In this document: piece by piece, positions 26,732 to 26,842 of the stretch | How positions within the stretch are numbered: the first letter of the stretch is position 1 | Layout: each line of letters starts with the position of its first letter | DNA from: Candidatus Hydrothermarchaeum profundi | GTDB lineage: Archaea > Hydrothermarchaeota > Hydrothermarchaeia > Hydrothermarchaeales > Hydrothermarchaeaceae | Direction: 5' to 3' | DNA length: 64,000 bases | NCBI GenBank assembly: GCA_002011125.2 | Contig: MTMF02000009.1 | Coordinates: 1 to 64,000 of the forward strand | Program-made: the position numbers and the translations under genes | Notes under the pieces: generated by a model | Database searches by the model: none | The model's input: only the letters and a program-made list of their open reading frames with translations | What the model was told of the DNA's origin: nothing

Positions 26732-26842
26732 TTGCTGAATAAGATCCTATCAACCCCCATACTGCCTTTAGCGGTCTTCATAACACTATTAGTAATAACA
26801 AGCACTGTATCCGCAGGTGGAGGTTCGTCAGTGGGGCCATAA
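26732..26842 (+). CDS. 36-aa precursor peptide: signal peptide plus GGGSSVGP (DUF7503-like)
   Basis: Perfect SD GGAGGTGA 6 nt before TTG. Translation MLNKILSTPILPLAVFITLLVITSTVSAGGGSSVGP*: n-region K, hydrophobic core, V-S-A cleavage motif. Not in the ORF track. Confidence 0.8.
   Translation: MLNKILSTPILPLAVFITLLVITSTVSAGGGSSVGP

Follow-up and report, generated by a model that had tools for sequence, protein, structure and literature searches.

In the RRNPP(A) cassettes of Bacillota and phages (Rap-Phr, PlcR-PapR and AimR-AimP), a propeptide gene lies next to the gene of a cytoplasmic receptor. The propeptide carries a signal-like leader and has the mature peptide at its C-terminus, and even closely related systems have diversified in their peptides. 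The definition is given in PMC10075063, and tandemly duplicated pheromone units are known in such systems, as described in PMC11343458. A broader literature search, at the level of titles and abstracts, returned peptide-pheromone systems with a cytoplasmic receptor in Bacillota and phages and none in archaea, and in one passage of PMC12700828 the word 'archaea' is confined to the reference list. Here we describe an archaeal locus that can be compared with these cassettes. It is located in positions 1 to 64,000 of contig MTMF02000009.1 of Candidatus Hydrothermarchaeum profundi (hereafter the window, which means the whole stretch of 64,000 nucleotides that was analysed) and consists of a small frame of 36 codons and, convergent to it, the gene of a 681-residue CHAT-like protein with a predicted caspase fold. 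The evidence strongly supports the small frame as a real, regulated gene and as the partner of the caspase-fold gene, and it strongly supports the tail of the peptide, GGGSSVGP, as a conserved and diversifying functional unit. That this tail is a peptide ligand, and the neighbour its dedicated receptor-protease, is the reading of the whole that we hold with moderate confidence.

Ligand-switched CHAT proteases, namely SAVED-CHAT and the type III-E Craspase TPR-CHAT/Csx29, have a sensor part that binds the ligand, either a cyclic oligonucleotide or an RNA-guided complex, and a caspase-fold part that cuts the target. In the DegS type of activation, a PDZ domain recognises a free C-terminal peptide in a non-catalytic pocket through strand addition. 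Precursors of peptides that are made on the ribosome and modified after translation (RiPPs) of the multi-core, cyanobactin type consist of a conserved leader and a variable core, with cores arranged in tandem. The Pfam family DUF7503 (PF24335) comprises haloarchaeal proteins of about 45 residues and unknown function, which occupy the same convergent position after a CHAT-like gene. A literature search by family name and accession returned no paper on DUF7503, DUF7504, PF24335 or PF24336.

A conserved small gene with a diversifying tail

The frame and its Shine-Dalgarno sequence are present where the original prediction, which had been made from the letters alone, had placed them (Table 1), and the frame translates as (M/L)LNKILSTPILPLAVFITLLVITSTVSAGGGSSVGP. 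It is open for just two codons further upstream (38 residues in total), so that TTG is its sole usual start. The motif GGAGGTG serves as a ribosome-binding site in this genome, where 83 of 287 such sites are followed, 3-10 nucleotides on, by a start codon with a frame of at least 60 residues. The tripartite signal-peptide shape that had been ascribed to the product is likewise visible: Lys4, a 19-residue window with a mean Kyte-Doolittle value of 2.31, V-S-A and eight residues after it. The features of a Sec/signal peptidase I substrate, a positive n-region, a hydrophobic h-region, valine at -3 and alanine at -1, are all present, and cleavage by signal peptidase I after V-S-A is plausible. Whole-genome frame and profile searches returned no second copy of the peptide, the frame being single-copy there, and the other top genome matches of a profile of haloarchaeal relatives appear unrelated to it. 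The antisense frame that had been pointed out at this place is found in the mechanical list of open reading frames (26596..26805, minus strand, 69 residues), and 'hidden' was a fair word for the gene: a profile that contains the window peptide matched three proteins in a collection of 5.8 billion predicted proteins, among which are neither the window peptide nor that of its closest complete relative (L002, below). The non-halophilic members are therefore unannotated, being missed by gene callers. The 36-codon frame is very probably a real gene that has escaped annotation.

The position, orientation and architecture of the frame are kept beside homologues of the CHAT-like gene; the original prediction had named the lack of such conservation as one of its grounds for refutation, and it passes on this point. 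Within the phylum, the CHAT-like gene is present in 3 of 38 species genomes, that of the window counted and one copy being cut by a contig end. The sole complete relative, locus L002 of a second Hydrothermarchaeales genome, has a CHAT-like protein that is 46% identical, the same three genes in the same order and a small convergent frame that ends in ...GIVAAGGGSYGP. When the DNA of the two loci is aligned, the Ala-Gly-Gly-Gly and Gly-Pro codons differ at third positions only, as is expected from purifying selection on the frame. A scan of one genome per species revealed further CHAT-like relatives in a Methanocellales metagenome-assembled genome (42% identity) and in Natronosalvus hydrolyticus (29%). 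Right after each of these genes there is again a small convergent frame, ending in ...TVSAYGAFRGP in the former and in ...TVVAGGRSGTTGGI in the latter.

A metagenome scan yielded 180 relatives of the CHAT-like protein, and the best 80 loci of the 180 were kept; L001, L003, L004, L006 and L008 (copies of the window, a partial gene and a duplicate locus) were excluded from the counts. On the 80 loci, 85 gene ends were examined, 76 of which are assessable in that at least 200 nucleotides follow downstream. A small convergent frame, homologous to that of the window by position and architecture, was found at 71 of the 76, a count that is not one of independent cases because many loci come from related samples. 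The frame has a single tail at 59 gene ends and a tandem tail at 12; a short ambiguous variant stands at one (L011), and no frame was found at four (L009, L010 and one of the two copies in each of L067 and L087). The small frame ends 3 to 407 nucleotides (median 20) beyond the point where the CHAT-like match stops. Among all frames of at least 20 residues in the fetched loci, true members counted, 203 of 10,343 end in G-[PTI].

After duplicates were collapsed there were 60 distinct single-tail peptides, that of the window included, and the alignment (A6) comprises 59 peptides. Pro9 and Phe16 of the window peptide fall in columns that are at least 90% conserved, as does Pro36, and Gly35 occupies the sole invariant column. 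In the column of Ala28 (-1), alanine or glycine is found in 58 of the 59 peptides, and at -3 alanine or valine in 55. When residues are counted from the C-terminus without gaps, glycine stands at -2 in all 59 and proline at -1 in 56, and positions -9 to -3 have an entropy of 2.2-3.2 bits. Peptides whose leaders are 75-90% identical have 37% of core positions in common, and those whose leaders are at least 90% identical have 74%. The tail after the Ala28 column has 7-10 residues in 57 of 59 peptides and carries no charge in 46 of 59; G, P, A, T, S and N are abundant in it. The net charge of the N-region ranges from -3 to +3, being -1 or 0 in 32 of 59. Judged from these columns, members of the family are built of a putative signal peptidase I site and, after it, a short peptide that varies except at its fixed end. 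In a set of 1.84 billion representative proteins, 253 clusters at 50% identity match the profile of the 59 peptides, 67 with E <= 1e-10. The positional orthologue of Natronosalvus matches DUF7503 with an E-value of 8.3e-17 and 60.9 bits (gathering score 27 bits), and Haloferax volcanii likewise has a DUF7503 match. Cultured haloarchaea are among the carriers of the family; on a plasmid of Natronosalvus amylolyticus, for example, the peptide gene and the CHAT-like gene are both annotated as 'hypothetical protein'. One member of the family, P0135, has a four-cysteine tail (…AAGCCCTEAWCGP), a variant that may bind a metal or form disulfide bonds.

In one haloarchaeal clade of 15 loci (L014, L016, L019, L022-L025, L027, L030-L032, L048-L050 and L055), the frame at the same position, on the minus strand and about 15 nucleotides after the CHAT-like match, has no hydrophobic segment, the top 19-residue hydropathy being at most 0.26. 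A short, conserved N-terminus of the MS[EK]RDSGTV type (e.g. MSKRDSGTV...) is followed by exact or near-exact 13-residue units, 6-13 of them in complete frames and up to 15 in a frame cut at the locus end. Each unit has the form x-[T/N]-A-[D/E]-G-N-x-x-x-[I/V]-S-G-P, with a variable first position (M/Y/F/A/Q), and the last unit is the end of the protein. Its counterpart in the single-tail form is the 'x-A-x plus tail' part. Comparison of the two forms indicates that evolution multiplies the tail and not the leader, which supports the tail as the product. The original prediction had reasoned that the tail is the product from the small size of what follows the leader, and this view gains from the (near-)invariant Gly-Pro end, the variable core, the tandem-tail precursors and a predicted interface that is confined to residues 26-36 of the peptide (see below).

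Several variants of the arrangement were seen among the metagenomic loci. In L034 (2570-3059), L046 (3076-3380) and L060 (4544-4842), the single-tail gene is present in two or three copies, arranged in tandem after one CHAT-like gene; the copies in L034 and L046 have an identical tail and slightly different leaders, and the two copies in L060 have slightly different leaders and a common tail core. In L040, L063 and L064, two CHAT-like paralogues are on the same strand (matches at about 2501-4570, and again to about 6900), the peptide gene stands after the first, and the locus end falls after the second. The variant in L011 has 24 residues (MLSRVLEQLLSSVQCAGGSAYTGP; about 4578-4650, minus strand) with a weak hydrophobic part and stands after a CHAT-like gene of 33% identity. 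In L009, a stretch at about 4590-4670 (minus strand) that was read as a tRNA directly follows the CHAT-like gene in place of the peptide gene, and rearrangement of the cassette, at a hot spot for integration, may have taken place there. A DUF7504 protein (PF24336, E 3.2e-32) is encoded at 3065-3769 of L007 and at the equivalent position in 25 further loci. All tandem-tail loci, several single-tail loci and Natronosalvus have its gene just 5' of the CHAT-like gene, and it is missing in the window, L002 and L005; a search by sequence found no solved relative of DUF7504.

The caspase-fold partner and the predicted complex

The Pfam matches of the 681-residue neighbour are below threshold (CHAT, PF12770, E 0.011, 15.6 bits against a cut-off of 24; Peptidase_C25, E 0.03, 14 bits against 23), and its homologues are publicly named as hypothetical, CHAT-domain or caspase-family proteins. 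An AlphaFold2 model based on an alignment of 38 homologues has a mean predicted local distance difference test score (pLDDT) of 87.5 and a predicted template-modelling score (pTM) of 0.88. Foldseek matched residues about 430-590 of the model, with a probability of 1.00, to SAVED-CHAT (8tl0, E 9.1e-7), gingipain RgpB (4ief), separase (5fby), Craspase TPR-CHAT (7y84) and MALT1. As modelled, the protein has a caspase-hemoglobinase fold with a clan-CD protease domain. None of the 38 homologues departs from His485 (in G-H) or from Cys516 (in N-A-C), which, from their position in the fold, probably form the catalytic pair. The N-terminal motif E168-R169-S170-x-P172-T173-x-R175-x-H177-P178-P179 is likewise invariant in all 38. 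The model is composed of a beta-sandwich, an alpha/beta part and the caspase fold and gave no TPR matches; an atlas search with the N-terminal 420 residues returned only members of the same archaeal family. The top 19-residue hydropathy window of the protein is 1.22, and neither a membrane-like segment nor a signal-like N-terminus is seen, so that the partner is presumably cytoplasmic.

In three runs of complex prediction for the peptide and the 681-residue protein, the interface score (ipSAE) came to 0.89, 0.87 and 0.89, whereas the best of three controls scored 0.38. Of 80 solved complexes, 58 attain the mark of the tool, as do 2 of 110 mismatched pairs, and the mark is a rough guide here since custom alignments were used. 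At least 65% of the contacts are common to the three runs, and the pLDDT of the partner is about 50. On the side of the peptide, the confident interface comprises residues 26-36 only (VSAGGGSSVGP). On the side of the protein, it comprises residues 43-44, 59-62, 93, 95, 114-115, 134, 171-174 and 273-274 as well as 594-599, 614-628, 638 and 657-661. These residues line a pocket to which the N-terminal beta-sandwich, the invariant ERSYPTLR motif and the C-terminal beta domain all contribute. The listed contacts exclude His485 and Cys516. The V-G-P end of the peptide is met by Y/F171, P172, T173, L174 and G622, which are invariant or nearly so, and the variable core is met by residues such as 60-62, 95, 114-115, 597-599, 618, 624-626 and 638, with an entropy of about 3 bits. 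The model sets the tail by strand addition against residues 622-628, and a fold search found no similar solved complex. The tail is predicted to dock in a non-catalytic pocket of its partner, as a ligand-specific receptor pocket would look.

Control elements and neighbouring genes

The peptide frame lies within an AT-rich spacer of 384 nucleotides, the elements of which are listed in Table 1.

Table 1. Features of the peptide locus (coordinates of the window)
Feature	Position	Strand	Remarks
131-residue TbsP-like winged-helix regulator	26080..26475	-	divergent, 5' of the peptide gene; PF23336, E 1.2e-14
Direct repeat CGGAATT-GC-CGGAATT, candidate operator	26662..26677	+	just 5' of the TATA-like box
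TATA-like box TTAATATA, putative own promoter of the peptide gene	26676..26683	+	conserved with respect to L002; about 20 nucleotides before the 5' hairpin
Putative hairpin masking the ribosome-binding site	26700..26724	+	anti-Shine-Dalgarno arm CGCCUCCGU would pair with the ribosome-binding site ACGGAGGUG
Shine-Dalgarno sequence GGAGGTGA	26718..26725	+	6 nucleotides 5' of TTG
36-codon frame	26732..26842	+	TTG start at 26732, TAA stop at 26840-26842
Leader, residues 1-28	26732..26815	+	MLNK, hydrophobic stretch with Pro9 and Phe16, then T-V-S-A
Tail GGGSSVGP and stop	26816..26842	+	presumed functional moiety; terminal Gly-Pro common to the family
Terminator-like hairpin	26830..26856		12 base pairs, GC-rich, overlaps the stop codon, with a T-rich run after it; separates the convergent genes
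681-residue CHAT-like, caspase-fold protein	26860..28905	-	convergent, 3' of the peptide gene

In the alignment with L002, the block ACGGAATTGCCGGAATTAATATAGTA upstream of the frame corresponds to ACGGATTTCCCGAATTTAAAATAGTA, which precedes the L002 peptide gene at the same position. This conserved block, which precedes the 5' hairpin, probably consists of a direct-repeat operator and a TATA box, and the pattern of the direct repeat is found once in the genome of 2.19 megabases. The 5' hairpin has 9 base pairs (-15.4 kcal/mol, z -5.07, 0 of 200 shuffles as good). Its equivalent in L002, also an anti-Shine-Dalgarno hairpin, has 8 base pairs with different arms (-18.5 kcal/mol, z -3.76, 1 of 200 shuffles). 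The repeat and the hairpin, both kept in kind in L002, suggest transcriptional and translational control of the peptide. The terminator-like hairpin has a folding energy of -20.7 kcal/mol (z -4.42, 0 of 200 shuffles as good). A known RNA element was considered and rejected, as Rfam gave no match in 26300-27100 at E <= 1.

The TbsP-like gene is single-copy in the genome and occupies the same position in L002, where it is 55.6% identical to that of the window; a weaker relative is found in L011, about 950 nucleotides beyond the 24-residue variant. The TbsP-like protein is a candidate regulator or target of the module. A nickel-related cluster adjoins the module (24055-25742, minus strand), with genes for NikR (141 residues, NikR_C E 2.3e-29), an ArsR-type helix-turn-helix fused to DUF4430 (166 residues) and a NicO/DsbD_2-like membrane protein of 224 residues with a His-rich loop. 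The G+C minimum of the window is at 26001-28000 (0.337 against an average of about 0.38), and haloarchaeal copies of the module are often on megaplasmids (27 plasmid records). The low G+C, together with the patchy occurrence in 3 of 38 genomes, is compatible with an accessory cassette that moves horizontally. The locus itself is present in two DNA runs, which may stem from the source sample. A hydrothermal-vent run carries a relative of the locus in a 713-base contig that spans 26303-27017 with 31 differences (about 96% identical), and the other pieces of this relative are mostly 90-95% identical to the window. The genome encodes one SBP_bac_5 (Opp/Dpp-type) binding protein (E 2.7e-73), which fits peptide import without being specific to it. 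Two further candidates were rejected: a defence system, PADLOC having given no match for the CHAT-like, TbsP-like and DUF7504 proteins, and a viral origin, the CHAT-like protein having no relative in IMG/VR. There are no CRISPR or CBASS genes near the module.

Readings of the module and described systems

If the peptide is the ligand and its neighbour the receptor-protease, an outline of the process would be as follows. Synthesis of the peptide would be regulated by a promoter of its own with the conserved repeat and by the hairpin that masks the ribosome-binding site. The leader would act as a Sec signal peptide, and signal peptidase I would cleave after V-S-A. The released octapeptide GGGSSVGP would build up outside the cell and then re-enter it, the functional part of the family being the C-terminal 8-11 residues, here (VSA)GGGSSVGP. 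Binding of the peptide would switch the caspase-like domain, resulting in cleavage of an intracellular target, for which the adjacent TbsP-like regulator is one possibility. The logic would be RRNPP-like with a protease as the output. Within the ligand and receptor-protease reading we lean slightly towards the secreted-signal route, export and re-uptake being likely. It is a further step, and a doubtful one, to regard the module as the first gene-encoded peptide communication system of Archaea, in which a secreted, 'pherotype'-like peptide of 7-10 residues with a Gly-Pro end would be re-imported and read by a caspase-fold receptor to cause intracellular proteolysis. No less tentatively, such a system might be common to Hydrothermarchaeales, Methanocellales and many Halobacteria, the tandem variant providing many ligand copies per precursor.

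Several points weigh against the ligand and receptor-protease reading. No RNA dataset is listed as carrying the stretch. The complex score is the model's own confidence, obtained with custom alignments and with an uncertain fold of the partner. The predicted interface takes in V26-S27-A28, which would be lost on cleavage, and the 13-residue unit of the tandem-tail form is about as long as the interface; both fit recognition of an uncleaved C-terminus. L009 and L010, the closest metagenomic relatives of the partner (45-48% identity), have no small frame nearby, a putative tRNA and unrelated genes lying downstream of their CHAT-like genes, which speaks against linkage as a strict requirement. 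Since a signal-like segment is missing from the tandem-tail clade, Sec export is not universal in the family, and, with a neighbour that looks cytoplasmic, this argues against obligatory secretion. The lead to DUF7503 given by the original prediction holds at the level of the family, through the Natronosalvus orthologue and the common architecture, and fails for the window peptide itself, for which hmmscan found neither a DUF7503 match nor any other family at E <= 1. When the whole genome was searched in six frames with PF24335, the top match lay elsewhere (E 4.02) and none fell on the window frame. A profile of 56 haloarchaeal peptides ranks the window frame 3rd among 56,685 frames of the genome, with a non-significant E-value of 3.4 (9.1 bits). 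Homology of the window peptide thus rests on synteny and common architecture, by which it appears to be a short, divergent, DUF7503-like peptide and not a demonstrated member of DUF7503.

Co-variation of pocket and tail gave a mixed picture. Over all 132 close pairs, the rate of differences is 0.10 in the interface and 0.12 in the rest of the protein. Single-tail pairs with different tails differ at 0.173 in the interface (157/910) and at 0.113 in the rest (1886/16650), and those with identical tails at 0.006 (1/175) and 0.016 (50/3200), respectively. In tandem-tail pairs with different tails, it is the interface that differs less, at 0.092, and the rest more, at 0.126. The enrichment in single-tail pairs with different tails is driven by one clade. 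The co-variation, being mixed and clade-dependent, is a further point against the ligand and receptor-protease reading, and we do not count it as support.

The alternative that survives best, which we nevertheless regard as rather unlikely, is an uncleaved microprotein acting in cis, whose C-terminal 11-13 residues dock to the caspase-like protein inside the cell, nothing being secreted as a signal. Such a microprotein would sit in the membrane or, in the clade with tandem tails, be soluble and multivalent, and it would tether, cluster, inhibit or activate the protease. A partner without a signal or membrane segment would fit this, as would tandem-tail precursors that have no hydrophobic segment and would be cytoplasmic, and an interface at residues 26-36 that includes V-S-A and comes close to the repeat length of 13. 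The N-terminal part of the leader is conserved beyond the needs of a signal peptide, as in the columns of Pro9 and Phe16, and caspase-fold proteases are commonly controlled by oligomerisation or a bound inhibitor, separase-securin and SAVED-CHAT filaments being among the fold matches. Against an anchor stands the charge of the window peptide: the only one is that of Lys4 near the N-terminus and the tail is uncharged, so that the N-terminus is predicted inside and the tail outside. Most tails of the family are likewise uncharged, though the charge of the N-region varies. In addition, small residues at -3 and -1 are conserved as in signal peptidase I sites, and fast divergence of a tail behind a constant leader is more typical of signals and toxins than of anchors.

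It is improbable that the peptide is a RiPP-like precursor, which its leader would guide to the CHAT-like protein as to a maturation protease or legumain-like transpeptidase, and whose core, an antimicrobial or other secreted product, would thereby be released and perhaps cyclised. Clan CD contains legumain-type peptide ligases and cyclases, and RiPP precursors classically combine a conserved leader with a hypervariable core and may have several cores, as is seen here; Asn or Asp is also frequent near the start of the tail (at +1, N in 11 and D in 5 of 59) and present in every tandem unit. However, the tails of the window, L002 and L005 have neither Asn nor Asp, and the predicted pocket contacts exclude the presumed catalytic His485 and Cys516. 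The surroundings of the pair contain no conserved gene for a modifying enzyme, a transporter or immunity: the CHAT-like gene is the only constant one, and the other neighbours vary by lineage and are housekeeping or regulatory, in the Methanocellales locus housekeeping only. The original prediction had considered head-to-tail cyclisation of the octapeptide, and this idea finds no support, since the vicinity has no conserved cyclase or modifying enzyme, the His/Cys pair is not among the listed contacts of the pocket, and the tail is the true C-terminus of the precursor, leaving a transpeptidase no leaving group and no bond to exchange in a head-to-tail closure.

A chance open frame in the AT-rich spacer, with hairpins that are merely the terminator or spacer structure of the neighbouring genes, is very improbable: the frame is very short, starts with TTG and has no Pfam or NCBIfam match, but its position, strand, architecture and terminal Gly-Pro are kept across three archaeal classes, its conserved codons change at third positions only, its promoter block and ribosome-binding site are conserved, an independent profile ranks it near the top of the genome, and the complex prediction is far above the controls.

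The ligand and receptor-protease reading can finally be set beside the described systems. The conserved two-gene module spans three archaeal classes and is widespread in Halobacteria, and hence the reading is testable; it would bring a new receptor architecture. By whichever route the module works, it provides a first functional handle on DUF7503 and on a large archaeal caspase-like family with a unique N-terminal region, and, if it is true that the peptide controls the protease, this would be a new way to regulate caspase-fold enzymes. The window peptide shares with DUF7503 the conserved Pro and Phe, the hydrophobic stretch, A-x-A and the short tail ending in Gly-Pro; it differs from it in being shorter, without most of the N-terminal 'xxYLAENP[RK]' part. 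Cyanobactin-type precursors differ from the module in that no tailoring enzymes are conserved near it and the predicted pocket is not the active site. With the DegS type of activation the module would share the placing of the tail by strand addition in a non-catalytic pocket, as modelled, whereas there is no PDZ domain here and the ligand is encoded by a dedicated partner gene. In its logic the module would come closest to the RRNPP(A) cassettes, tandem duplication of the peptide unit included. Of the RRNPP(A) definition, adjacency of propeptide and receptor genes is present, and binding of the tail is predicted. The differences from these cassettes are that the putative receptor has no TPR fold but a family-specific N-terminal region and a caspase-fold protease, that the module is archaeal and its genes convergent, and that one clade has no signal-like segment. 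The ligand-switched CHAT proteases are the best structural matches of the protease domain, and their logic, in which a sensor binds a ligand and a caspase-fold part cuts, would be alike; in place of a cyclic oligonucleotide or an RNA-guided complex, the ligand here would be a gene-encoded peptide, read by an unrelated sensor region.

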